In this document: positions 4,554-55,413 of the stretch, one piece after another
How the letters are laid out: every line of letters starts with the position of its first letter
Numbering within the stretch: the first letter of the stretch is position 1
Virus record (IMG/VR): IMGVR_UViG_3300024268_000040
Reading direction: 5' to 3' (one strand)
Source of the DNA: a virus
Lineage: Duplodnaviria; Heunggongvirae; Uroviricota; Caudoviricetes
Length of the DNA: 64,000 nt
Translations under genes and position numbers: made by a program
The notes under the pieces: model-generated
What the model saw: the letters and a program-made list of their open reading frames with translations, nothing else
Told to the model about the DNA's origin: nothing
Database searches by the model: none

Positions 4554-7079
4554 ATGGCTGTAAAAACTTACACAAAAGGAATTGCAACTAAATTAAGCAC
4601 AAATTTTAAGTCTACTGAATTTGACTGTCATGGATCTGGTTGCTGTTCTAAAACTTTAGTTGATGACAAATTAGTGGAATATTTACAAAAAATCAGAGAC
4701 CATTTTGGCAAGCCTGTAAATGTAAGTTCTGCTTATCGTTGTACTACACATAATAAAAATGTTGGTGGAGCAACTGGCTCTCGTCATATGAAAGGCCAAG
4801 CTGCAGATATTTATATTACAGGAGTAAAACCTGCCGAAATTGCCAAATATGCTGAATCTATTGGTATTTTAGGCATTGGTTTGTATGAAACTGATAAAGA
4901 TGGTCACTTCGTCCATGTGGATACTAGAACTACTAAATCTTTTTGGTATGGTCAAGCGCAAGCTAAACGCACTACTTTTGGAGGCGCAGTAACAACCGCT
5001 ACTCCTCAAAAAGAATTATACCGAGTAAGAAAAACTTGGGCTGATAGTAAATCTCAATTAGGTGCATATAGCATTTTAGATAATGCAAAGAAGACTTGTG
5101 ATAAAGCTGGTGTTGGTTATTATGTTTTTAATTCAAAGGGGGAAATTGTATATCCAGTAGCAAAAGAAGAGAAAGAAGAAAATGCTATAATCATTGATAC
5201 CTCTAAGGTTAATACAAATGCCATTGATGAAAAAGTAATGTGGAATTATTTTAAATCTAAAGGCTTAAATGATTATGGTATTGCTGGTTTAATGGGAAAT
5301 CTTTTTGCTGAATCTGGTTTACGTCCTTGCAATTTACAGCAGACCTATGAAAAATCTCTTGGTATGAGTGATGCTGAATATACTGCCGCAGTAGATGCAG
5401 GAATTTATACTAACTTTATTAATGATAAAGCTGGTTATGGTTTGGCTCAATGGACCTATTGGAGTTTGAAGCAAGAAATGCTCACTTATTTCCAAGCCAA
5501 TAAAAAATCTATTGGTGATGGTACTACTCAGATGGAATTCCTATGTCACCAATTGTCAACTAGCTACAAATCTGTATGGACTACTTTACAAACAGCAAAA
5601 TCTGTTTTAGAAGCTTCTAATGCAGTATTATTAAAATTTGAGCGTCCCGCCGATCAAAGCGAGGCCGCACAAAACAAGAGAGCAGGATATGGTCAAAAAT
5701 ATTATGACAAATATGCTGTTAAAGAAGAAGTTAAAATTGAAATCCCAAAAGAAGGAGGAAACGGAAAAATGAAGTATTCTGCTTCTAATAAACCCCTTGT
5801 ATGCATGCAAACTCAAAGCACTTGTTATAAAGGAACAAGTAAAATGACTGTTAAAGGCGTTTTATGGCATTCTACTGGTGCTAATAACCCTAATTTAAAG
5901 CGTTATGTGCAACCAAGTGACAATGCTTCTGATAAAGAGGAAATGTTAGCATTATTAGGTATAAATCAATATAAAAATGATTGGAATCATATTGAACGTC
6001 AAGCAGGATTAAATTGTTGGATCGGTAAATTAGCTGATGGAACTGTTGCTACTATATAGACAATGCCTTGGGATTATAAGCCTTGGGGTTGTGGTAGTGG
6101 TTCTAAAGGGTCTTGTAATAGTGGTTGGATTCAGTTTGAAATTTGTGAAGATGGATTAACTGATAAAACCTATTTTGATAAAGTCTATAAAGAGGCATGT
6201 GAAATTACTGCATATTTATGTGATATGTTTGATATTGATCCTTTTGGTACCGTCCGTGTTAATGGTATTGACGTTCCAACTATCTTATGTCATGCAGATT
6301 CTTATAAGTTAGGATTAGGCTCCAATCATGGTGATATTAATCATTGGTTCCCTAAATTTGGTAAATCAATGGAAACTGCTCGTCAAGATGTTGCTGATTT
6401 AATGGGAACTAAAGTATCTGTAATCGAACCAGCTGAGCCCGATAAAAAGGACGATGTACCTGCGGCCGCACCCTCTAATGAAATGTATCGTGTAAGAAAG
6501 TCATGGGAAGATTCAAAAAGTCAAATTGGAGCATATAGTCAATTACAAAATGCAAAAAATGCTTGTGATAAAGCTGGTATTGGATATTATGTCTTCAATT
6601 CCAAAGGAGAAGTTATTTATCCTGAACAGCCAAAGAAAAACGAAGTCATTGAGGCTGTAAATGATTTACAATTAGGTTAGGCAGTATCTTTAAAAAATGG
6701 AGCAAAATATTCTTCTGGTGCTTCCATTCCTTCTTGGTTATTTGGTAAGAAATTATATGTGCGTGAAATCCGTGATGACGGTAAAGTCGTATTTTCTACT
6801 TTAGCTTCTGGAGATATTACTGGTGTGACTTATGCTACTAATTTATTACCTTATAACGGAGATAGTATAGCAGCTCCAAAAGTACCGGAGTTTGAATCTT
6901 ATTTAGTTAAAATTGTTGCTGATGTATTAAATGTTCGTGCGGGAGCAGGCGTTTAGTATCGTATTAATACTCAGGTTAAAAAAGGTCAAGTTTATACTAT
7001 TGTAGGAGAATAGTCTGGTTGGGGCAAATTGAAATCTGGCGCCGGTTGGATTTCACTTAACTATACTAAGAAAATTTAA
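4554..7079 (+). CDS. Giant modular cell-wall hydrolase (endolysin), ~841 codons with 4 in-frame TAGs (6057, 6678, 6954, 7011).
   Basis: N-terminal M15-type peptidase motif (SAYRC..HN..VGGA..SRH..GQAADI), then an Amidase02_C-like wall-binding repeat (YRVRKTWADSKSQLGAYS) and a lysozyme-like domain (GIAGLMGNLFAESGL). After TAG 6057 comes an amidase-like domain with a second wall-binding repeat. After TAG 6678 come two SH3b-like repeats. Listed ORFs 4533, 6063 and 6759 share one frame. SD aagggag before ATG 4554. Confidence 0.7.
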
Positions 7080-8928: not shown

Positions 8929-9098
8929 ATATAAAATCTCCTTTCTCTCAAAGAGTATAAATCTATTTCTATATTATATTATTTTTCCTAAAGCATTTTT
9001 TTTCTTCTGGCCAGAAGAAAAAAAAACTCATATATGATTTTTTATATATAATTAGAAATATAACTCTTTTTATTTTGAGAGAAAGGAGATTTTATATA
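8929..9098. promoter_or_regulatory. Divergent late-gene control region. Two copies of the conserved late leader flank a perfect 34-nt palindrome tttttttcttctggccagaagaaaaaaa.
   Basis: Both divergent genes have an identical SD context, gagagaaaggagattttatatATGGG. The same ~95-nt leader recurs at 14330-14440 and 52241-52345. Confidence 0.5.
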
Positions 9099-12253: not shown

Positions 12254-14329
12254 TTATCCAATAGTCTAATAATAAAGCGTGCCAACTCGAGCATTACCAC
12301 TAGGTTGATTTGCACCAAAATTGTGACAAGTATCTCCAGCATTAACTTTAATACCTATTTCGTATCCAACATCAGAAGGAATAGTATCCCAAAATCCATA
12401 ATTCTAAATAGAAGAATACCATTGATAAGATTCTAAAACAGTAATGTTTGCCTAAGAATAATTAACGTATTTCATCCACATGGTAAAATTACCAGTACTC
12501 TCATTATAATAGGCTTTAAAATCATCAATTCCATAAGGGCAAGAGCCATTATAGTTTAAACTTCCAACAAGAGGGGCCAAACCAGCGCTATTAACATCTA
12601 AAGTTAGACTAAAAATTCCAGTGCCCTAATATCTAGATGAAATTGCTAATACTAACCGAGCATTTCGCCATCCCCCAAGAGTCTCTTGGCAAATTTTTAC
12701 CCATTTTCCATTGTGAGTGCCAGGTTCGCCCCACATCGCAGTGGTTGATGTAAGTCTATTAGCTGTAGAAGCCTATCCTGCCGTGGTAGCATAATTTGCG
12801 GTACCTGTAAAATAATTAGCATGAATAGTCGCATCACCATTTGGTCCTCCAAAAACAAATTTAGTTGGAATAGGTCTAGCATCTGTTGCACGATATCCCA
12901 TATAAATTGTTGAATCTATATAGTTATTAGTGCCACCGAAATTAATTTCATTATTTTTCTCTGCTACAATACTCATAGTTCCATCACCTATGTTAATATG
13001 ACTATGAGATTGTGGTTTAAAAGATTCTTCACTTATTTCAGTTGAATCACTTGGTAAAATTGTATTAAATTGTGCAGTATGAACCCAATTATTTACATAT
13101 CTACCATTTAATAAAGAAACATCCCAATAACCATAACTATTTCCACCATATACTGCAACATATAAATATAATCTATTATTTGTAGCATCTTTATATAAAT
13201 AAAATGTTCGTTTTATTTTTCCTCCTATTTGCACTCTAGAAGTAGAATAACCAAAACCACCATTAGTATCACTCTATACTGTAATTAAATCAGATGAAGA
13301 ATGCTAATTTCCCCAAAAAGAACTGCTAACGCATAACACCCAACTCTAAAATTCAGAACCAACTTGAAAATATCCAAGTTCTAAAATATGTGTATCAGCA
13401 TCTGCGTAAAATCCTCCCCATGCTGTTCCATTATAAATAAGAGCTGATGCACCAGTAATGTTAATACCCCAAGTGCCAGAAGCTCCTCCGCCTGTTAAAG
13501 TTGGAGAGTATAAATTATAATTGGCAGAAGTTAGTAAAGTATGCCATGGAATATCAGTTAAAGTAGCATTAGGTTTTTGTATTCCTCTAATTGCAAATCC
13601 GTACTAACTACTTCCTGCAATTTGCATTTTACACACACCATCATGAAAATTTACACATCCGTAATATCCATCCCAGGGTTTTGCACCAGAAACTGTCACT
13701 TCATTTGATGCACGTACTTCAAAAAATCCGTTAAAAGTCAAATTATCAATATTATAAGAATTTCCAACATCTTCCCGAGTGAGTGTGTAGAAACCTCCAT
13801 TATTAGGTGTTAAAATTTTATAATTAGTACCATTTTTACGATGATATATATCAGTGTTATAGGTCTCAAGATAAATACTTTTTCCACTATTACCAGACCC
13901 GTAAACTGCCAAAAACAATCCATCTGATGAATTAGCAGCTAAATATGCATCTGTATTAATGTTTGTAAATCTTAAAGCATATTCAGCTTTTAATATAGCA
14001 GAATCTCCATGAAAATTAATACCATAAACATCAGCCCATCTAACAGTTGGTCCACCTAAATTATAAATGGCATCTCCTATTGGATAAAAAGTATTACTAT
14101 TCATGCGAAAACGAGGTTCTGCCTAAGTGTAAAATACTAAATCATTATTATTCGCATAACCGCTGCTAGCCATTCCACCAATACCAGCCCATTTAACTGA
14201 ACTATCACTAGCATTTAAAAATTTTATGCCTGGACCCCATCCAGTCGAATTGTAATTTAATGTTTGATGAAGTACCAAAGGCCAACTCTAACCATCGAGG
14301 TTAGATACATTAATTTTTAAAGCACCCAT
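12254..14329 (-). CDS. Tail fiber paralog 3 (~691 codons, many TAGs).
   Basis: Start MGALKINVSNLDG-Q-... behind the conserved leader. The frame was followed through listed ORFs 13604..14104 and 12773..13234 and the gaps between them, which contain only TAG. TAA at 12254-12256. Confidence 0.65.
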
Positions 14330-14963: not shown

Positions 14964-15716
14964 ATGTATCAAATTTATAAAATAACTAATCAAAAAAATG
15001 GAATGGTCTATATTGGTTCATCAATTGAAGTTGAACGCAGATGGAGACAACATAAAGAAGCTTCCATTAATGAGAAAGACCATCATTATAATTATCCTTT
15101 AATGATTGCTTTTAGAGAGTTCGGTATTGATAATTTTACTTTTGAGATTATTGAAACTCTACCTTCTTGGGAAGAGATGATTGAAGCCGAACATAATTGG
15201 ATTGTAAAAGAAGATTGTGTAAAACCAAAAGGCTACAATCAGACTGATAAAACTGATAGCCCAATGTTTGATCCCTCTATCGCAAAAAAAATGAGTGATA
15301 CTAAACGAGTTAAATATGGTAAAAAAGTTTGTGAAATCTCTTCTAATAAAGAAATTGTCGGAGCATGGAATTCGTTAGCAGAAGCTGGTGAAAACACGGG
15401 TCTTGACCGATTTAAGATTAGTGATGTGTGCAATGGCCGACGTTTAACCACCGGAGGTAGAGTGTTTAGATTTACTGATGAAGAAGGTAATTTAATTGAA
15501 CCTGAAATAAAAGTAAATAAAACTCAAACCAGTAGAATTACAAAATCCAGTAGGAAAGTTGTAAAAATGAATGATAATAATGAAGAATTACAAGTTTATG
15601 ATAGCGTAGCACGTGCGGCCGCAGATAATAATTGCGACGCAAGTGCCATATCAAAAGTTTGTAACGGTTCAAGAAATAAATGTGGAGGTTTTAAATGGAA
15701 ATACCTAACAATGTAA
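14964..15716 (+). CDS. GIY-YIG homing endonuclease, free-standing, standard alphabet (no TAG).
   Basis: IYKITNQKNGMVYIGSS...RRWRQH motif set, with a C-terminal DNA-binding region. Inserted between the gyrB-arm ORF and the full topoisomerase gene. Confidence 0.85.
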   Translation: MYQIYKITNQKNGMVYIGSSIEVERRWRQHKEASINEKDHHYNYPLMIAFREFGIDNFTFEIIETLPSWEEMIEAEHNWIVKEDCVKPKGYNQTDKTDSPMFDPSIAKKMSDTKRVKYGKKVCEISSNKEIVGAWNSLAEAGENTGLDRFKISDVCNGRRLTTGGRVFRFTDEEGNLIEPEIKVNKTQTSRITKSSRKVVKMNDNNEELQVYDSVARAAADNNCDASAISKVCNGSRNKCGGFKWKYLTM

Positions 15717-17614
15717 ATAATGCTGAATATGGCGTTAATCAAATTAAAACCTTGGAAGGAATTGAAGCAATTCGTCTTCGTGCGGGAATGTATATCGGAA
15801 GTGTTGGACCCGAAGGTGTCAGACACATCACACTCGAAATCATTTCTAATGCAGTTGATGAATATTTAAATGGACATTGTACTCATTGCACCATTGACGT
15901 TGGAGAAGATGGCGTAATTTGTATTCATGACAATGGTCGTGGCGTTCCTTTTGGCAAGGCTGAGGATGGTAGTGAAGTTTTAGTTAATGTTTATACCAAG
16001 CTTCATACTGGTGCAAAGTTTGATAGCTCTGGCAAGACTGGCTATAATACCTCCGGTGGTATGAATGGTGTCGGTGCTAAAGCAACAAATGCATTGTCTG
16101 AAATTTTTACTGTTGTATCTTATCGTGACGGTAAAAAGGCTACAGCCGAATTTGCTCGTGGCGAGTTATTAAAATATAATGAAGTACAAGATCCCAATCA
16201 AAAAGTTACCGGCACAGCTATTATGTTTAAACCAGATGCCACCATTTTTAAAGAAGGCATTATGCTTGAATACGCTCCTCTCAAGAAGCAAATCCAAGAG
16301 TTAGCTTACTTATCTCCTGGCTTAGTATTTGAACTAAACTATAAAGACACTAAAGAAACTATTACTTCTCAAAACGGTATTCGTGATTACATTAATGACC
16401 TAAACGATGGTAAAAATAAAGTAACTTCTGTATTCTATACTGAAAGTATGGAAGATAGAATTGGTGTAAAAATTGCTATGCAATATAATGATACTTATAC
16501 TGATATGTATCGCTTATATACCAACTCCATTCCCAATAGTGCGGGAACCCACTTGACCGGTTTCAGAACCGCGCTCACTTCTACAATCAACGAGTATGCT
16601 CGTGAAAAAAAGCTACTCAAAGAAAAAGATGCCAATATTACTGGTGAAGAATTGAAGGAAGGTTTAGTTCTTGTCCTGTCCTTCATTATGCCTGACCCTG
16701 TTTTCTCCGGTCAGACAAAGGATGTTCTCTCCAGTAGTGAGGCTCGTACCGCAGTACAACGATTGACCGCAAGAGAAATTAAAGTTTGGCTTGATGCAAA
16801 TCCAAAAGATGCCAAAGCAATCGTAGATAAGGCTCTTCTGGCTCGTGCGGCCCGTGAAAAGGCAAAGAAAGCCAAGGAAACCGTGCGGAAGGTCGATAAT
16901 AAGCGGCGTGTACTCTTACCTGATGTATTGAGTGATGCCAACTCTAAGGATCGTCACCTCTGTGAAGTATTCCTCGTTGAGGGTAAATCCGCTGCCGGTA
17001 CTACAATCGAAGCTCGTGACCGCAATACCCAGGCTGTTTTCCAGCTTCGTGGTAAGATTTTGAATGTTTTGAAAACTGATTTACATAAGGCTCTTCAGAA
17101 TAAGGAAATTAGCGGTATGATTGACGCCTTCGGTTTGGAAGTTAAAGATGGTAAGGTTATCGTTGATGAATCTAAGCTGAGATATGGCAAGATTATTATC
17201 ACCGCGGATGCTGATGTCGACGGAAGCCACATTCGAGTCCTGTTCCTTACATTCATTTGGAAATTCTGTCCCGAGCTTATTGAAAAGGGATATATTTATG
17301 CAGCAGTACCTCCTCTATATAAAGCAACATATGGTACCAATATCAAGTATCTCGTAAATGATGCTGCGCTCAATGAATTTAGAGCTGGTATGAAGAGATC
17401 TTTTGAGCTGGGTCGTATGAAAGGCTTAGGTGAGATGGACCCAGATGAAATGGCTGAAACTGTTATGAATGCTAAGACTCGTATTCTTAAACAGATTACT
17501 ATGGAAGACGCAGCAGCAGTCGCGCAGACATTTATGAGTTTAATGGGAGAGTCGGTTACGCCCAGAAAGAAGTTCATTGAAGAGAACTCTTGGAGGGCTA
17601 ATATTGATGTCTGA
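15695..17614 (+). CDS. Type IIA DNA topoisomerase ATPase/TOPRIM subunit (GyrB/ParE/T4 gp39-like), 639 aa, TAG-free.
   Basis: GHKL motifs (EIISNAVDE, DNGRGVP, GG.NGVG). TOPRIM motifs (LVEGKSAAG, ADADVDGSHI). Confidence 0.9.
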   Translation: MEIPNNVNNAEYGVNQIKTLEGIEAIRLRAGMYIGSVGPEGVRHITLEIISNAVDEYLNGHCTHCTIDVGEDGVICIHDNGRGVPFGKAEDGSEVLVNVYTKLHTGAKFDSSGKTGYNTSGGMNGVGAKATNALSEIFTVVSYRDGKKATAEFARGELLKYNEVQDPNQKVTGTAIMFKPDATIFKEGIMLEYAPLKKQIQELAYLSPGLVFELNYKDTKETITSQNGIRDYINDLNDGKNKVTSVFYTESMEDRIGVKIAMQYNDTYTDMYRLYTNSIPNSAGTHLTGFRTALTSTINEYAREKKLLKEKDANITGEELKEGLVLVLSFIMPDPVFSGQTKDVLSSSEARTAVQRLTAREIKVWLDANPKDAKAIVDKALLARAAREKAKKAKETVRKVDNKRRVLLPDVLSDANSKDRHLCEVFLVEGKSAAGTTIEARDRNTQAVFQLRGKILNVLKTDLHKALQNKEISGMIDAFGLEVKDGKVIVDESKLRYGKIIITADADVDGSHIRVLFLTFIWKFCPELIEKGYIYAAVPPLYKATYGTNIKYLVNDAALNEFRAGMKRSFELGRMKGLGEMDPDEMAETVMNAKTRILKQITMEDAAAVAQTFMSLMGESVTPRKKFIEENSWRANIDV

Positions 17615-21688: not shown

Positions 21689-21768
21689 TTCGTGTTTGGG
21701 TATAGAGTAATTATAGACGAAGACATAAGATTTCTATATATTGACGTCTATGATTTCTATGAGTTGAC

Positions 21769-21797
21769 AAAATGAAAAAAATTTTCTATAATATATA
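21769..21797 (+). promoter_or_regulatory. Promoter TTGACA-17-TATAAT.
   Basis: ttgaca aaatgaaaaaaattttc tataat upstream of ligA. Confidence 0.5.
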
Positions 21798-23808: not shown

Positions 23809-23811
23809 TTG

Positions 23812-23840
23812 ACAAAAAGAAAAAAATTTTGTATAATAAA
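23812..23840 (+). promoter_or_regulatory. Promoter TTGACA-17-TATAAT.
   Basis: ttgaca aaaagaaaaaaattttg tataat. Confidence 0.5.
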
Positions 23841-23870: not shown

Positions 23871-24062
23871 ATGAAACAAAAGGAAATCAAGAACCTCGCT
23901 CAGAAGATCGCTAAGTATGAGCGTATCATCCAAACCAGCGATGATAAAAAATAGGTTCGACAAGCAGAAGAAGAAATTATGAAGTTGTCTAGTAGTGTTA
24001 GTAGTCTGGAAGACATGGTCGCTATTGACGAACTCGTAATGGAAATGCTTGAAAAAAATTGA
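23871..24062 (+). CDS. Small coiled-coil protein with one TAG (23952), stop TGA.
   Basis: 63 codons, frame checked base by base. Confidence 0.35.
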
Positions 24063-24071
24063 AAAAATTTC

Positions 24072-24100
24072 TTGACAAAAGAAAAATTTTTTGATATAAT
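24072..24100 (+). promoter_or_regulatory. Promoter TTGACA-17-TATAAT.
   Basis: ttgaca aaagaaaaattttttga tataat. Confidence 0.5.
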
Positions 24101-24167: not shown

Positions 24168-24443
24168 ATGGCTATGAAGGAAAATTCTAAGAGAGTTCTG
24201 AATTATTTGAAGGAGATCAACGGCGAGAATGTTACCGCTGCTGACGTTGCTGCTACCCTGGGTCTGGAGAAGCGTTCTGTTGACGGTATCTTCACCAGCG
24301 CTATTCAGCGCAAGGGCTTGGGTGTTCGTACCCCCGCTGAGATCGAGCTGGAGGATGGCACTCACAAGCAGGTCAAGTTCCTGTCTCTGACTCCTGCAGG
24401 CATGGCTTTCGATCCTGACGCAACTGAAGAAGCTGCTGAGTAA
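24168..24443 (+). CDS. Small GC-rich hypothetical protein, possibly a winged-helix DNA binder.
   Basis: 91 aa, no TAG, followed by a strong terminator. Codon usage differs from neighbours. Confidence 0.45.
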   Translation: MAMKENSKRVLNYLKEINGENVTAADVAATLGLEKRSVDGIFTSAIQRKGLGVRTPAEIELEDGTHKQVKFLSLTPAGMAFDPDATEEAAE

Positions 24444-24458
24444 TTTTGACATATACTA

Positions 24459-24497
24459 AGGGGTAAGATTGAAATATATCTTACCCCATTTTTTCCA
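24459..24497 (+). terminator. Rho-independent terminator.
   Basis: ggggtaagat-tgaaat-atcttacccc hairpin plus T6. Confidence 0.6.
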
Positions 24498-24502
24498 TCA
24501 TT

Positions 24503-25492
24503 ATGGAATGGTTGATTTTACTCGCCTCTGTGCTCGTTGCTGCCGGATTAGGCGGCTTTATCACATATCGACTGTTTAGATAGCGGCTATTTGCCGTCCA
24601 GGAGTTCGACAAGTCGATTGCTATGAAAAACGAGCAATTAAGAGAAGAAAATAAGATTTTAGAAGAGAATAATCAAGATTTATTCAATCAAAATGATTAT
24701 CTAAAATCTGAAAAAATCAAGCTGGATATTCAAAACCAATCTGCTAAAGAGTAGTTGGAGAGCCTCAATGGCAGTATCTCAGCTATGGAAAAGTAGGCTC
24801 AAGAGGCCGCTGAACTATTCTATGCGTCTCGTATGTAGGCTGCATAGGAGAAACTCGCGCAATCACTTCAAGAAGAAAACCAAAAATATCAAGATAATAT
24901 AATTGGTTTTTAGACTGAATATGATAAAACTGTTGCTGATATGTTAGAAGCTTTTCAAGAGTTATCTGATAATGTAGCTGTTATGCGAGCTACAAATGAC
25001 GCCGCAGTTGCCGCAGCCAAGAGAGCCGCTGAAATGAAAGATTAGTAGGCTTTTTATCGCATTTAGTTATCTGACGCAGATATTCACGAAATTGAATTAT
25101 TGCGATAGGTTGAACCCTATTTGCGAGATAAGGAGCCTTTGAATAAAGTCATATGGAAATGCTATTACGAAAAACCAACCACCGACCTTATTGGTCGAGT
25201 AATTGGTACAGGAGTAAAAACTGGAATTTATAAAATTACAGAAATTGAAACTGGTAAATGCTATGTTGGTTAGGCTGCTAATTTAGCAGACCGTTGGAAA
25301 TAGCATATTAAGCGTGGTGTAGGCGCAGAAACGCCAACCCGCAACAAACTCTATCCTGCAATGATTGCGGCCGGCCCAGAGAATTTCACTTTTGAGGTCG
25401 TCGAAATCTGCGATCGCTCTGCGCTCGATGCGCGTGAGGACTACTGGCAGGATTATTTCAAGGCGAAAGAATTTGGATACAGTATAAAGTAA
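24503..25492 (+). CDS. Membrane-anchored coiled-coil protein with a C-terminal GIY-YIG nuclease domain; 12 in-frame TAG codons in 330.
   Basis: N-terminal TM MEWLILLASVLVAAGLGGFI, then a long coiled coil, then GIYKITEIETGKCYVG-Q-AANLADRWK-Q-HIKRG...ENFTFEVVEICD...ARE.YW. The TAGs fall where the two other phage GIY-YIG proteins have Gln (YIGQS, RWRQH). Ends at TAA 25490. Confidence 0.7.
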
Positions 25493-25783: not shown

Positions 25784-26674
25784 ATGACAAAAGCAGATAA
25801 ATATATGTATCATATGATTGTAGAAATTATGCGTTATGGATATAAGGATATTAATCCTCGTCCTAAGTACGCAGACGGCACTCCCGCGCATACAATTTCT
25901 GTCAATCACACTTTTCGTAAATACGATTTGAGTAACGGAGAATTTCCGATCTGTACCCTCCGTCCGCAGGCTTGGAAAACTGGTATCAAAGAAATTTTTA
26001 CCATTTACTAGAAGCCAACCAATGATATCGCAACTATGCACGAAATGGGTGTGACTTGGTGGGATGAGTGGGACATCGGCGACGGCACTATCGGTCAGCG
26101 CTATGGTGCTACTGTAAGTCGTTATGACCTTATTAATAATCTTATCAAAGATATTGAGAAAGACCCATATGGTCGTCGCAAAATTGTAAGCCTATGGCAG
26201 GAACAGGATTTACATGAGACTCCTGGCCTCGCCCCATGTGCCTTCCTTACCATTTGGAATGTGCGTGGCGAATATCTTGATATGATGCTGGTTCAGCGTA
26301 GTGGTGATATGCTTACTGCTTCTGGTCCAGGAGGTATCAACGAAATTCAGTATGCGGCATTGCTGATGATGATTGCGCGACACACAGGTTATAAGCCCGG
26401 TGTATTTAGCCATGTCGTTGCAAACGAGCAGATTTACGATCGTCATATGGATGCCGCTAAAGAGATGATGGCGCGTTACAGCGCTCGTGATCTCGAAGAA
26501 CAATATGCTTGGGATGAAGGTTATCAAGATAATACTAATGCTGAAATTTTCCAGCGTCCACGCATGGACCTCAATCCCGCAAAAACCAATTTCTACGATA
26601 TGACTATCGAAGATTTTGAATTGACTGGTTATCATCCCACCAAACCTCAACTGAAACTGGAGCTGGGTATATGA
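25784..26674 (+). CDS. thyA: Thymidylate synthase ThyA with one in-frame TAG (26009).
   Basis: SD gagga before ATG 25784. Listed ORFs 25706 and 26036 share a frame. EIFTIY-Q-KPTNDI aligns with E. coli ELLWFL-Q-GDTNIA. Catalytic LAPCAF (PCHA-like) motif. Confidence 0.9.
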
Positions 26675-27165
26675 TTTCAGCAATTGTTGCAGTTGATAAT
26701 AATTGGGGGATTGGATATAAAGGGGAACTCTTGGAGCATTTACCTCCCGATATGAAGTATTTCAAAGAGCTTACTACTAGCCATGTTGTAGTAATGGGCC
26801 GTAAAACCTGGGATTCCCTACCCAATAAACCACTCAAAGATAGACTCAATCTTGTTATTACTTCTGGTGAGCGCCAATATGCAGAAATGACTTGTTTTAT
26901 TGGAATGGCTGAAGCAATGGCTCGTCTCGCTCATGTTGAAGATGATGAAGAATGGTTTATCATTGGTGGTGGCTCTATTTACGAGCAACTACTTCCTTTG
27001 TGTGACCGTGTTTATGTAACAAAAATTCTAAAAGACCATAAAGATGTAGATACCTATTTCCCAAATTTGGATAAAGATCCTAAATGGGAGGTCAGCACTT
27101 GTACTGAACTAAGAGAATACAAGGATATTTACTATGCATTTCTGACTTATGACAGAATTAGTTGA
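26671..27165 (+). CDS. folA: Dihydrofolate reductase.
   Basis: ISAIVAVDNNWGIG...VVMGRKTW...LVITS motifs. ATGA overlap with thyA. Confidence 0.9.
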   Translation: MISAIVAVDNNWGIGYKGELLEHLPPDMKYFKELTTSHVVVMGRKTWDSLPNKPLKDRLNLVITSGERQYAEMTCFIGMAEAMARLAHVEDDEEWFIIGGGSIYEQLLPLCDRVYVTKILKDHKDVDTYFPNLDKDPKWEVSTCTELREYKDIYYAFLTYDRIS

Positions 27166-31362: not shown

Positions 31363-32435
31363 GTTGGGACAATGAAACACTTTTCCGCTAATCAGCGGGG
31401 TACCTGCGGCGGGCCCGGTCAAAGACCGGCGAACCGAGCAACCGCAAGTGCTAACGGGGAACCCTAAACAGTAATGCATGGGAATCCCGTGGGAAACTTT
31501 GGACGGAACTAGTCAATTGAGCTTTGACTTCTTTCATACTATAATGAAAGGAGTGGTTCTATGGGAATTATTTATTGTTTTACAAATAATGTAAATGGTA
31601 AAAAATATATCGGACAATCCATTAGCAAAGGTAATGCTCGATATAATAATCATAAAAGCAGTTATAAAAATCCAGATGATTGTGAATATGAATCTCCACT
31701 TCATCGAGCATTCCGCAAACACGGATTTGAAAATTTTACTTATGAAGTATTAGCACAAGATGTTGAAAATATTGATTTATTAAATCAATTAGAAATTCAA
31801 TATATTCAACAATATAATTGTCAAATACCAAATGGTTATAATATTGAACCCGGCGGTAAAAATTGTGCTAAACCCAAAACAATAGAGCATAGAAAGAAAG
31901 AAATTTGGGCTCAAGCGAAATTGACAGAAGAAGAAGTTATTGAATTAAGAAAGGCATATCAAAGAAAAGAAAGTCCTACTAAAATATATAAAGAAAAGTA
32001 TGAAGATATAATGCATTATAATTCTTTTCTAAATATTTGGTCTGGACGAAGATATGCTCTTATTATGCCAGAAGTATTTGAAAATGGACGTCATACAAAA
32101 CTCAATGCTGAAACTGTAAAACTTATTAGAAAGGATAGAGAAGAAACAAATCTTTCTTATGATAAGTTAGCAGAGAAGTATGGCATTTCAAAAGGCACTA
32201 TTGCTGACATAATCAAAAAACGAACTTGGAAAGATGTCTAAAGAACCTGTATCGACTATCCCCCAGGCCTTCTGGGCGGGGGAGTAGGGGTGCTATTGAT
32301 ACGCACTTGGATTTTAGGAAACGAAGTCCATTAAATGCCGAAACGGTGTCCTGCGGGACCCGGTCAGCCGTTCGCTGAACCGGGGCGACCGCAGTAAAAG
32401 ATAGTCAGCGCTTATAGAAATATAAGAGTCCGTTG
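31363..32435 (+). mobile_element. Group I intron (td-like core) carrying a GIY-YIG homing endonuclease gene; boundaries approximate.
   Basis: IGS candidate aacac (31376) complements exon gtgtt. aacggggaacc...ggaatcccgtgg resembles the td-intron P4-P6 core. R-like ggtcaaagaccgg and S-like aagatagtcagc elements are present. P9 hairpin cttata-gaaa-tataag before a terminal G. Coding resumes in frame ...DYIHTSLKILEE. Confidence 0.55.
31561..32241 (+). CDS. Intron-encoded GIY-YIG homing endonuclease.
   Basis: GIIYCFTNNVNGKKYIGQS...R..NH motifs. C-terminal HTH-like DNA-binding region. Its own SD aaaggag. Confidence 0.85.
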   Translation: MGIIYCFTNNVNGKKYIGQSISKGNARYNNHKSSYKNPDDCEYESPLHRAFRKHGFENFTYEVLAQDVENIDLLNQLEIQYIQQYNCQIPNGYNIEPGGKNCAKPKTIEHRKKEIWAQAKLTEEEVIELRKAYQRKESPTKIYKEKYEDIMHYNSFLNIWSGRRYALIMPEVFENGRHTKLNAETVKLIRKDREETNLSYDKLAEKYGISKGTIADIIKKRTWKDV

Positions 32436-52240: not shown

Positions 52241-52345
52241 ATATTAAAATCTCCTTTCTCTCAAAATAAAAAGAGTTATATTTCTATATAATATTAAATT
52301 TTTTATTATTATTCTTTCTTATTTTAGGCCAAAATATAATAATAA
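52241..52345 (-). promoter_or_regulatory. Conserved late leader, copy 4.
   Basis: The reverse complement reads ttttggcctaaaat...atagaaatataactctttttattttgagagaaaggagatttta. Confidence 0.5.
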
Positions 52346-55158: not shown

Positions 55159-55413
55159 TTAGTTGTTGTAGCCTAATGCACGTTTGAAGGCTTCAAATTC
55201 AGAGTCGAAATCCTAACCGCCCTATTGAGCGTAAATATTGCGAACTACTTTCTCTAGTTCCGCAGTGCGACCCTGTTGAGCTAAACTCAGGAGATTTCTT
55301 CCGAGGGGATTATTGTAGGCCTGACCCTAAAGCACGGATAACATTAACTATTGAGGGTTTTTACCAGACCTAATCATTGAAATTAAAACATTGGGATCTA
55401 CTGGATACATCAT
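55159..55413 (-). CDS. Small protein with 4 in-frame TAGs in 84 codons.
   Basis: SD ctaaggaggtatga-ATG on the minus strand. Read to TAA. Confidence 0.35.

Follow-up and report, generated by a model that had tools for sequence, protein, structure and literature searches.

A TAG-rich gene in the replication module of a gut-phage lineage encodes a predicted membrane-anchored GIY-YIG nuclease

One gene in the window (the whole stretch of 64,000 nucleotides of phage DNA analysed here) encodes a nuclease that begins with a transmembrane (TM) helix, continues in a helical stalk of ~160 residues and ends in a GIY-YIG domain of the I-TevI type. Its closest characterised analogue, and the only characterised protein with such a layout, is the E. 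coli nuclease SNIPE. From this likeness we propose, with a probability of roughly 0.4, that the phage protein may be a low-level, suppressor-dependent membrane nuclease that most likely serves superinfection exclusion. The features of the gene and its upstream region are collected in Table 1.

Table 1. Features of the nuclease gene, its product and the adjoining upstream region
Feature	Coordinates	Strand	Details
Sigma-70 consensus promoter of orf91	24072..24100	+	TTGACA-17-TATAAT, TG extension, 12/12 match
orf91	24168..24443	+	small acidic protein, pI 5.0, winged-helix-like
Intrinsic terminator	24460..24497	+	10-bp stem GGGGTAAGAT/ATCTTACCCC, 8-nt loop, T-run
Nuclease CDS	24503..25492	+	329 aa (code 15), ATG start, TAA stop
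Transmembrane helix, residues 3-21	24509..24565	+	Kyte-Doolittle 19-residue mean 2.16
Cytoplasmic alpha-helical stalk (predicted), residues 22-181	24566..25045	+	
Family-specific head extension, residues 185-239	25055..25219	+	
GIY-YIG catalytic core, residues 240-329	25220..25489	+	
TAG-encoded-Gln peptides of the nuclease			...CYVGQAANLADR, WKQHIK

TAG codons of the nuclease gene

The reading frame comprises 329 sense codons, the ATG included, and contains 12 in-frame TAG codons (codons 27, 84, 98, 112, 115, 137, 181, 182, 188, 202, 257 and 267), the count given in the initial annotation. Two of these lie within the GIY-YIG core, where 45 distinct homologues carry CAA/CAG (35) or TAG (10) at codon 257, and CAA/CAG (33), TAG (8) or a Thr codon (4) at codon 267. 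Because the homologues show CAA/CAG or TAG at these positions, the phage is predicted to read TAG as Gln in this gene; as in code 15, TAG falls where homologues have Gln and the frame is otherwise intact. Database homologues are called as proteins of 325-331 aa, while gene calling under the standard code splits the gene into fragments, as in the JGI record and the GenBank record of phage phAss-1.

The gene had been singled out as having the highest TAG density in the window, which holds for ORFs of at least 100 aa, but a probable 84-aa gene (55159-55413, minus strand) with an 8-base Shine-Dalgarno site is denser (4 TAG, 4.8%). Part of the high per-codon density of the nuclease gene comes from the abundance of Gln in the stalk. 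Of the Gln codons, TAG accounts for 12 of 25 (0.48) in the nuclease gene versus 3 of 117 in 14 neighbouring replication-module genes (Fisher p=2e-8), and for 0.43-0.58 in the tail-fibre-like genes. Across ~68 loci of the lineage TAG makes up 27% of the Gln codons of the nuclease gene and 0.5-4% of those in gyrA, ligase, thyA, YorF, AAA_24 and DnaB, so that, judged from codon counts, the excess forms a lineage-wide, conserved island. The first TAG occurs at a median position of codon 34 among relatives, and three homologues (L015, L017 and L043) have no TAG in the gene. An origin of the TAG richness as a by-product of AT-rich 'late-gene' codon usage was considered and rejected, since GC3 of the nuclease gene (0.37) is replication-like whereas that of the fibre genes is 0.16-0.22.

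No tRNA was found in the 64-kb window (of a genome of ~181 kb), nor within 8 kb on either side of the nuclease gene in 26 related loci. Two tRNA(CTA) genes lie ~400 bp downstream of the nuclease homologue in phAss-1, a relative filed by NCBI under 'Caudoviricetes code 15 clade'.

Protein architecture and relation to homing endonucleases

The N-terminal helix looked for on the strength of the initial annotation is recovered by hydropathy (Table 1), and 116 of 122 full-length representatives of the family likewise have a predicted TM helix at the N-terminus. The residues preceding it (M-E) carry no positive charge while those following it read YRLFRQR, and by the positive-inside rule an N-out/C-in topology is predicted. 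The stalk contains no Pro and only 2 Gly, is rich in A, Q, E, L and K, holds 7 of the 12 TAG codons and is presumably a coiled coil. In an AlphaFold2 model (mean pLDDT 93.5) calculated with 116 diverse family members as input, residues 2-181 form a single unbroken helix, from which the cytoplasmic stalk comes to ~160 residues; the previously suggested layout of TM helix, coiled coil and GIY-YIG domain is thus retained with a stalk shorter than the ~200 residues first estimated. The stalk evolves fast, and its membrane-proximal part shows the lowest conservation within the family. Weak profile matches of the nuclease to ATP synthase subunit b and ZapG-like proteins (ZapG/YhcB) reflect no homology beyond low-complexity helix. 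Proteins with a bitopic TM segment, a cytoplasmic helix or coiled coil and an effector include phi29 p16.7 and RNase Y, which have the N-terminal anchor and long helical spacer in common with the phage nuclease but differ in their effector domains.

Between stalk and core lies a head extension with two helices (191-201 and 211-233) and motifs including EPLNKVIWKxYYEKP, for which there is no Pfam match. In the core Y243, Y254, R264, H268 and E312 correspond to I-TevI Y6, Y17, R27, H31 and E75, while I-TevI N90 is replaced by S327; Gln257 and Gln267 are TAG-encoded. The initial annotation had let its assignment stand or fall with a PF01541 match once TAG is translated as Gln, and this match is significant (E=4e-9, above the gathering score, residues 240-321), with a further match to TIGR01453 (E=2e-18). 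All 116 family members match PF01541; among them G241, I242, Y243, Y254, G256, R264 and E312 are invariant and H268 is present in at least 90%. With the superfamily motifs and the catalytic Arg, His/Tyr and Glu all in place, the protein is predicted to be an active GIY-YIG DNA endonuclease with intact catalytic residues.

The architecture is unlike that of a homing endonuclease, as had been remarked: the nuclease domain is C-terminal, the protein ends 1 residue past the core, and no DNA-binding module is found in Pfam, PHROGs or the AlphaFold2 model. In I-TevI and related enzymes (TIGR01453; PDB 1LN0/1MK0) the catalytic Tyr, Tyr, Arg, His and Glu are the same but the domain order is reversed, and the linker and the zinc finger, NUMOD or HTH DNA-binding module of such enzymes have no counterpart in the phage nuclease, which is also immobile, membrane-anchored and has Ser in place of I-TevI N90. 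The genes at 14964 and 31561 (HEG1 and HEG2) do encode GIY-YIG homing endonucleases and contain no TAG, as described, and their products carry the C-terminal DNA-binding tails that the nuclease is without. Both are sporadic among relatives, whereas the nuclease gene is fixed and so shows no sign of homing mobility. The two homing genes look foreign in composition (GC3 0.14-0.21), while the nuclease gene (0.37) resembles its replication neighbours (0.32-0.38) except in TAG use. The suggestion that its different alphabet reflects a different origin or timing from the homing genes therefore agrees with composition, but the alphabet is not unique, being that of the window's TAG-rich fibre genes. 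On the evidence of its domains, the nuclease appears to have lost the sequence-reading DNA-binding tail of homing enzymes and to carry an anchor and helix instead.

At 40% identity (E=3e-10) the head matches the GIY-YIG domain of HEG1, which raises the question of whether the protein is what remains of a homing endonuclease, decaying or domesticated and without a nuclease role today, or instead an accessory in membrane or lysis functions that uses GIY-YIG only as a scaffold, its TAG richness then reflecting relaxed selection. The fast-evolving stalk and a weak, non-significant similarity to spanin-like PHROGs fit this explanation. However, the catalytic residues are invariant (the His nearly so) across 116 members that share only 28-67% identity, the ORF is intact at every locus, TAG occupies near-invariant functional Gln positions and the family spans 693 clusters at E<=1e-30. 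Together these point to strong purifying selection on an active enzyme, making the remnant explanation very improbable.

Genomic setting and expression signals

The nuclease family is unnamed. A search with a database homologue (P0001) and a family alignment (A1) recovers 693 clusters (50% identity) at E<=1e-30, and the full-length matches inspected are uncultivated gut phages. A megablast search with the surrounding 12 kb gives no match among 50,697 phage records, and tblastn finds only phAss-1 beyond the bare GIY-YIG domain, phAss-1 (code 15) being an example of the homologues in other recoded phages whose existence the initial annotation had left to be looked for. In a contig scan every full-length match falls in a MAG contig labelled Clostridia, Bacilli, Mollicutes or otherwise; these contigs reach 176 kb, the majority being 120-176 kb long, and look like mis-binned phage genomes, and the host assignment is correspondingly loose.

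Directly upstream of the nuclease gene there is always orf91, which is rich in GC and CAG and shares 82-97% identity throughout the lineage. The nuclease gene occupies an identical slot behind orf91 in 80 loci retrieved by a nuclease-baited search and in 80 of 80 retrieved by an orf91-baited one, which supports a fixed, vertically inherited core gene of the replication module, as far as synteny can tell. Conservation within the family is highest in the nuclease domain and lowest in the N-terminal region, the head showing 56-89% identity over 145 aa. Downstream in the window follow orf92, thyA and folA, as had been reported for thyA-folA, although thyA-folA is an optional cassette in the lineage rather than a fixed partner, and many relatives that retain the nuclease lack it. 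The neighbours of the phAss-1 homologue are nrdD, nrdG and thyX.

This setting gives weight to the idea that the protein acts at the membrane in the DNA metabolism of the phage itself, as a delayed nicking or structure-specific endonuclease that might trigger the switch to rolling-circle or recombination-dependent replication, or trim branched concatemers before packaging. The anchor would then place the nuclease at a membrane-associated replication or packaging site, comparable to phi29 p16.7 (TM, coiled coil and DNA-binding domain), which organises replication at the membrane. The gene holds a fixed position between ligase/orf91 and YorF/AAA_24/YorH/DnaB in all relatives and is universal in the lineage, its head is as conserved as replication proteins, and structure-specific activity is known from other GIY-YIG enzymes, Slx1 among them. 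Delayed expression would also match a mid-to-late step of replication or packaging. Against this, the module's essential replication genes avoid TAG while the nuclease gene accumulates it, the terminator and missing Shine-Dalgarno site argue for a trace-amount protein, and we know of no phage resolvase or replication nuclease with a membrane anchor on a 160-residue stalk. We regard such a role as rather unlikely.

Upstream of the nuclease gene no promoter is recognisable except that of orf91. The terminator said to precede the gene is borne out by a hairpin and T-run: the stem-loop (24460-24487, 5 GC pairs) lies 15 nt before the ATG and the T-run ends 6 nt before it. A terminator hairpin is found 8-20 nt before the ATG in essentially all of ~40 distinct homologues, its structure kept by compensatory changes in the stem. 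No Shine-Dalgarno site is present upstream of the nuclease ATG in the window, where most genes have one (AAGGAGG), and all but one of the ~40 distinct homologues likewise lack it. A promoter between terminator and ATG was considered and rejected, as the TTGACA at 24446 is neither conserved nor followed by an acceptable -10 box. As conserved features, the TAG island, the upstream terminator and the lack of a Shine-Dalgarno site went unnoticed in the initial annotation. The phAss-1 homologue has a good Shine-Dalgarno site and no adjacent terminator, and two of these three brakes are thus specific to the window's lineage.

Acting together, the terminator, the missing Shine-Dalgarno site and the TAG codons would throttle expression. 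Since the ATG stands directly behind the terminator of orf91, a strongly promoted early gene, the mRNA probably arises mainly by read-through. Between roughly one quarter and one half of the Gln codons are TAG, with the first usually just behind the TM helix (codon 27 in the window), and full-length protein would consequently be made only once the phage amber-suppressor tRNA is active. The expected outcome is little nuclease, delayed and confined to the membrane.

Comparison with SNIPE and the proposed role

SNIPE, first found as PD-lambda-1 (Vassallo et al. 2022, PMC9519451), is a GIY-YIG nuclease anchored in the membrane, which cleaves phage DNA during injection and spares the chromosome (Saxton et al., bioRxiv 10.1101/2025.11.03.685801). 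Its TM anchor is oriented N-out, its body lies in the cytoplasm and GIY-YIG forms the C-terminal domain; without the TM helix SNIPE is toxic and goes to the nucleoid, and among its homologues the nuclease is most and the N-terminus least conserved (bioRxiv 10.1101/2025.11.03.685801). Its central DUF4041 domain is needed for defence and binds DNA and probably the tape-measure protein (bioRxiv 10.1101/2025.11.03.685801). The phage nuclease shares with SNIPE an elongated helical body ending in GIY-YIG, the same conservation gradient and, by analogy, a potentially toxic nuclease held back by a membrane tether; as in SNIPE, one TM helix is predicted at its N-terminus, and only a very short end is predicted to lie outside, the remainder being cytoplasmic. 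Where SNIPE has DUF4041, the phage protein has a simple helix of 160 residues and the two-helix extension of 55 residues. Since DUF4041 is found in none of the 116 family members (Pfam, E<=0.01), the phage nuclease is not a SNIPE member; the PADLOC PD-Lambda-1 model gives no match to the window protein at E<=1 and is not among the 25 families most often hit by the 116 members. SNIPE is also longer (>414 aa, the catalytic Glu being E414, versus ~330 aa) and resides in bacteria and mobile defence islands, whereas the phage nuclease is a fixed phage core gene whose expression depends on TAG suppression.

Uzume (UzuA; PADLOC PDLC03973), a defence system consisting of one gene, and phrog_26160 likewise carry GIY-YIG at the C-terminus, of a ~280-aa protein. 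The UzuA model is matched by 90 of the 116 family members, but membership was rejected as unproven: the match to the window protein covers profile positions 184-275 of 278 only, the nuclease part, against residues 240-326 (E=2.6e-9), and E-values are no better than those of generic HEase models, the likeness being judged by profile alone.

In the phage protein, the positive-inside rule would place stalk and nuclease head in the cytoplasm, with the head lying as much as ~25 nm from the membrane's inner face. The stalk is probably a coiled-coil dimer or oligomer, which would set two single-active-site heads side by side and make double-strand cuts possible. By analogy with SNIPE, the anchor may keep the nuclease off resident DNA (host and replicating phage), leaving only DNA that appears at the membrane to be cut, the likeliest target being the genome of a superinfecting phage during injection.

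Of the roles guessed in the initial annotation, exclusion is accordingly the one we favour and bulk degradation of host DNA is disfavoured, because SNIPE's anchor keeps its nuclease off the chromosome and only the anchor-less form attacks the nucleoid. Degradation of the host chromosome or of unpackaged DNA for nucleotide salvage would make the protein an analogue of T4 endonuclease II (DenA), a GIY-YIG enzyme encoded beside nucleotide-metabolism genes, and the adjoining thyA-folA here and nrdD, nrdG and thyX in phAss-1 agree with this. DenA (PDB 2WSH) is small, soluble and made early, lacks both anchor and stalk, and tells self from non-self by modified phage DNA. There is no DNA-modification gene to shield phage DNA in the window or related loci. 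Many nuclease-bearing relatives are without thyA-folA, and bulk degradation calls for the opposite of three expression brakes, so that we judge salvage quite improbable.

Several points weigh against superinfection exclusion. The nuclease has no DUF4041, through which SNIPE contacts DNA and probably the tape-measure protein. Genes for exclusion and defence tend to belong to the variable accessory set, while this is a universal replication-module gene whose head is very highly conserved, a pattern that fits involvement in the DNA metabolism of the phage itself no less well. Exclusion usually operates early, and the nuclease protein is predicted to be delayed. A broader and more doubtful proposal is that the family may be an unrecognised, phage-owned class of membrane-tethered nucleases, a homing-endonuclease-derived head on a coiled-coil stalk, convergent with SNIPE, that serves superinfection exclusion in a large lineage of 130-200-kb gut phages by cutting rival genomes on entry and whose production is licensed by the code switch.

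The nuclease gene offers a natural test of stop-codon recoding acting gene by gene in phages, being one gene that stays TAG-rich in hundreds of divergent relatives among TAG-poor replication genes and that a terminator and a missing Shine-Dalgarno site would independently throttle as well. Its recognition bears on annotation, as an unnamed family of 693 clusters at 50% identity is fragmented under the standard code, and the compact 145-aa head on a rigid stalk could become a spatially restricted nuclease tool. If superinfection exclusion is its role, TAG recoding would act as a safety lock on a toxic enzyme within an otherwise unrecoded early/replication module, and the discrimination of self from non-self by location seen in SNIPE may also serve phage-phage conflict, built independently from a homing-endonuclease domain.

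TAG codons and the reading of the nuclease gene

With TAA and TGA as the only stops many long ORFs of the window (38% GC) are restored, indicating that the source phage uses TAG as a sense codon; a tRNA search found no tRNA genes in the 64 kb. The 12 TAG codons first counted in the nuclease gene were recovered on recounting (codons 27, 84, 98, 112, 115, 137, 181, 182, 188, 202, 257 and 267; feature coordinates are tabulated below). Codons 257 and 267 lie within the catalytic core, and among 45 distinct homologues the former is CAA/CAG in 35 and TAG in 10, with nothing else, while the latter is CAA/CAG in 33, TAG in 8 and Thr in 4, a pattern indicating that TAG encodes Gln and that the ORF is read through.

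Within the replication module TAG accounts for 12/25 Gln codons of the nuclease gene versus 3/117 in 14 neighbouring genes (Fisher p=2e-8, which overstates independence since the loci are related), and the excess is not chance. The initial annotation had ranked the gene as the TAG-densest of the window, which holds for ORFs of 100 aa or more, a probable 84-aa gene being denser per codon. As a fraction of Gln codons, TAG in the nuclease gene (0.48) equals that in five tail-fibre-like genes (0.43-0.58), its high per-codon figure owing partly to the Gln-rich stalk. The 84-aa gene has a perfect 8-base Shine-Dalgarno site (AAGGAGGT) and no match in PHROG. Several tail-fibre-like genes are headed by a 21-nt leader (chance expectation 0.01 copies) and share N-termini (MGxLK[VI]NG...), C-termini (...G[TE]I[FY]YK[TI]), TAG at about half of their Gln codons and a very low GC3 (0.16-0.22).

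Across ~68 distinct, related loci the TAG share of Gln codons is 27% (377/1417) in the nuclease gene, compared with 1.3% in gyrA, 0.5% in ligase, 1.6% in thyA, 2.4% in YorF, 3.3% in AAA_24 and 3.9% in DnaB; orf63 is the only neighbour to approach it (19%). TAG positions turn over among relatives and the richness persists, the first TAG falling at median codon 34, just beyond the anchor. Three IMG/VR loci (L015, L017, L043) have zero TAG in the nuclease gene and its neighbours, so these relatives may use the standard code; in L022 the nuclease frame runs on to 611 codons under code 15, and there a TAG may be a genuine stop.

The same TM-stalk-GIY-YIG architecture, with a TAG-rich stalk and 40% identity, occurs in phAss-1 (136 kb), from a second, unrelated code-15 lineage, where the gene adjoins nrdD and two tRNA(CTA) genes ~400 bp downstream. 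In GenBank this gene appears as a pair of short CDS, 5473-5613 and 6019-6453, each labelled 'hypothetical protein', because in-frame TAG was taken as stop. Similarly, of two records of one phage region (L124/L125), the ENA assembly has an intact 329-aa nuclease, whereas the JGI record breaks it into 34-43-aa ORFs and splits thyA too. Standard-code gene calling thus hides the family.

Coordinates of features (window positions except for the phAss-1 homologue)
Feature	Position	Strand	Remarks
Leader TTTGAGAGAAAGGAGATTTTA	8932-8952, 9074-9094, 52245-52265	-, +, -	21 nt, identical copies
Near-copy of leader	before 12254-14329	-	tail-fibre-like gene
HEG1	14964-15716	+	3' end 22 nt into gyrB start
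gyrB	15695-17614	+	start overlapped by HEG1
Ligase sigma-70 promoter	21764-21792	+	12/12 consensus, TTGACA-17-TATAAT
orf63 sigma-70 promoter	23809-23837	+	12/12 consensus, TTGACA-17-TATAAT
orf63	23871-24062	+	63 aa, acidic, helical; orthologues in related loci L006-L085
orf91 sigma-70 promoter	24072-24100	+	perfect match; drives orf91
Terminator after orf91	24460-24487	+	10-bp GC-rich hairpin and T-run; ends 6 nt before nuclease ATG
Nuclease ORF	24503-25492	+	ATG...TAA, 329 sense codons, 12 in-frame TAG
thyA-folA pair	25784-27165		optional cassette, ~1/4 of related loci
HEG2	31561-32241	+	directly after DnaB
Probable 84-aa gene	55159-55413	-	4 TAG (4.8%), densest in window
phAss-1 homologue (L005)	OQ749652.1, 5474-6453		TM-stalk-GIY-YIG gene

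Architecture of the nuclease and its likeness to SNIPE

In the TAG=Gln translation Pfam GIY-YIG matches residues 240-321 above the gathering score (E=4e-9), as the initial annotation had anticipated, and TIGR01453 ('group I intron endonuclease') scores E=2e-18. Among solved structures the family profile has a single significant match, the I-TevI catalytic domain (E=3.6e-13). An AlphaFold2 model built from 116 diverse homologues (mean pLDDT 93.5) has one unbroken helix (residues 2-181), a softer hinge (~170-185) and a globular head of 145 residues, in which helices 191-201 and 211-233 precede a canonical GIY-YIG core. Of the proposed architecture the N-terminal TM helix and C-terminal GIY-YIG domain stand, while the helical stalk between them (residues 22-181; 0 Pro, 2 Gly, rich in A/Q/E/L/K) is only assumed to be a coiled coil. 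The TM helix (residues 3-21) is strongly hydrophobic (Kyte-Doolittle 2.16) and retained in 116 of 122 full-length representatives; because its flanks (no positive charge before, YRLFRQR after) obey the positive-inside rule, stalk and head are probably cytoplasmic.

Seven head residues (G241, I242, Y243, Y254, G256, R264 and E312) are invariant and H268 nearly so in 116 members sharing 28-67% identity. The catalytic residues align with I-TevI Y6, Y17, R27, H31 and E75, whereas the position of I-TevI N90 holds an invariant Ser. Conservation of this kind is what purifying selection on an active enzyme leaves behind, and it makes it highly improbable that the nuclease is a decayed remnant.

E. coli SNIPE (PD-lambda-1, first noted in PMC9519451) alone among characterised proteins has this layout: an N-out TM anchor is followed by cytoplasmic DUF4041 and a C-terminal GIY-YIG domain. 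SNIPE cuts phage DNA during injection (bioRxiv 10.1101/2025.11.03.685801). The anchor protects the chromosome, TM-less SNIPE being toxic and decorating the nucleoid, and among homologues the nuclease is most and the N-terminus least conserved (bioRxiv 10.1101/2025.11.03.685801). The phage family shares the topology prediction and this conservation gradient. Nevertheless membership of SNIPE was rejected: a Pfam search found DUF4041 in none of 116 members, the modelled stalk being a bare helix instead, and no PADLOC PD-Lambda-1 model matched the window protein. UzuA (Uzume) membership was likewise rejected, the matches being limited to the nuclease part of its profile. The nuclease may thus work like SNIPE without belonging to it, and on this analogy we tentatively favour (probability about 0.4) superinfection exclusion, one of the two roles initially guessed: the tether would keep the enzyme off resident DNA, and DNA arriving at the membrane would be cut, excluding rival phages.

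A fixed gene of the replication module

Full-length homologues number >100 (325-331 aa, 66-97% identical, on contigs up to ~200 kb), and an exhaustive profile search gave 693 clusters (50% identity) at E<=1e-30. Full-length matches in 'genomes' all lie on MAG contigs no longer than 176 kb, mostly 120-176 kb, labelled Clostridia, Bacilli, Mollicutes and others, which look like mis-binned phages. In 80 IMG/VR loci plus ENA contigs the order gyrA - ligase - orf63 - orf91 - nuclease - (orf92) - (thyA-folA) - orf120 - YorF - AAA_24 - YorH - DnaB is invariable, save that ligase, orf63 or orf92 is missing from a few. Retrieved independently by orf91, 80/80 loci have the nuclease head downstream, at constant distance except in two with insertions; L155 and L196 carry 0.8-1.5 kb between the two genes. 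The nuclease is thus a fixed core gene of the lineage. It does precede thyA-folA in the window, with orf92 intervening, but the pair is optional; in loci lacking it orf92/orf120 directly follow the nuclease gene. Universality within the replication module and the very strong conservation of the head speak against exclusion and for work at the membrane when the phage replicates or packages its own DNA, a role we consider unlikely and about half as probable as exclusion.

This fixed position also agrees with the view that the protein is not a homing endonuclease. It stops 1 residue past the GIY-YIG core, with no NUMOD, zinc-finger or HTH tail, whereas the free-standing homing endonucleases HEG1 and HEG2 carry such DNA-binding tails. 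Both HEGs are TAG-free, as initially described, and occur in a minority of related loci at varying positions; their GC3 is 0.14-0.21, compared with 0.37 for the nuclease gene and 0.32-0.38 for gyrB, gyrA and ligase. Such sparsity, varying place, zero TAG and low GC3 are as expected of mobile genes inserted recently. The 40% identity between the head and the nuclease domain of HEG1 (E=3e-10) makes old domestication of a homing-endonuclease domain plausible.

Expression and significance

The gene was correctly described as following a strong terminator: a hairpin lies 8-20 nt before the ATG in essentially all of ~40 distinct homologues, its stem varying in sequence and keeping complementarity. 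No conserved promoter was found between terminator and ATG in the window or homologues, and none of the three window copies of the fibre-gene leader lies at the nuclease gene. A Shine-Dalgarno site is absent in all but one of the ~40 homologues; window genes, including orf92 directly downstream, mostly have AAGGAGG-type sites. Three TAG-free relatives still have the terminator and lack the site; the phAss-1 homologue has TAG codons and a normal site. We infer that expression in this lineage is braked three ways, by terminator, missing Shine-Dalgarno site and TAG codons: mRNA would come mainly from read-through and be poorly translated, and full-length protein would appear only after an amber-suppressor tRNA is active, leaving the nuclease delayed and of low abundance. 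Such delay would also count against exclusion and suit the replication or packaging role. The other initial guess, wholesale degradation of host DNA as by T4 EndoII, is disfavoured by the anchor, the three brakes and the optional status of thyA-folA, and we judge it improbable.

Upstream, ligase, orf63 and orf91 have 12/12 sigma-70 promoters within 2.4 kb. The organisation of orf91 as a promoter-gene-terminator unit, its unusually high GC (0.51) and its CAG/AAG/CTG-biased codons suggest very high early expression. orf63, two genes upstream of the nuclease and the only other TAG-enriched replication-module gene across the lineage, could be its partner or regulator.

There is precedent for the GIY-YIG fold, for TAG recoding and for the principle of a nuclease held at the membrane. 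New are a large unnamed, apparently phage-restricted family with an I-TevI-type head on a TM-plus-stalk, the presence of such a nuclease as a fixed core gene, and a conserved 'TAG island' with terminator and no Shine-Dalgarno site within a TAG-poor replication module. With this gene one can test concretely whether recoding acts as a safety lock on single genes, and whether phages turn spatial self/non-self discrimination against one another.
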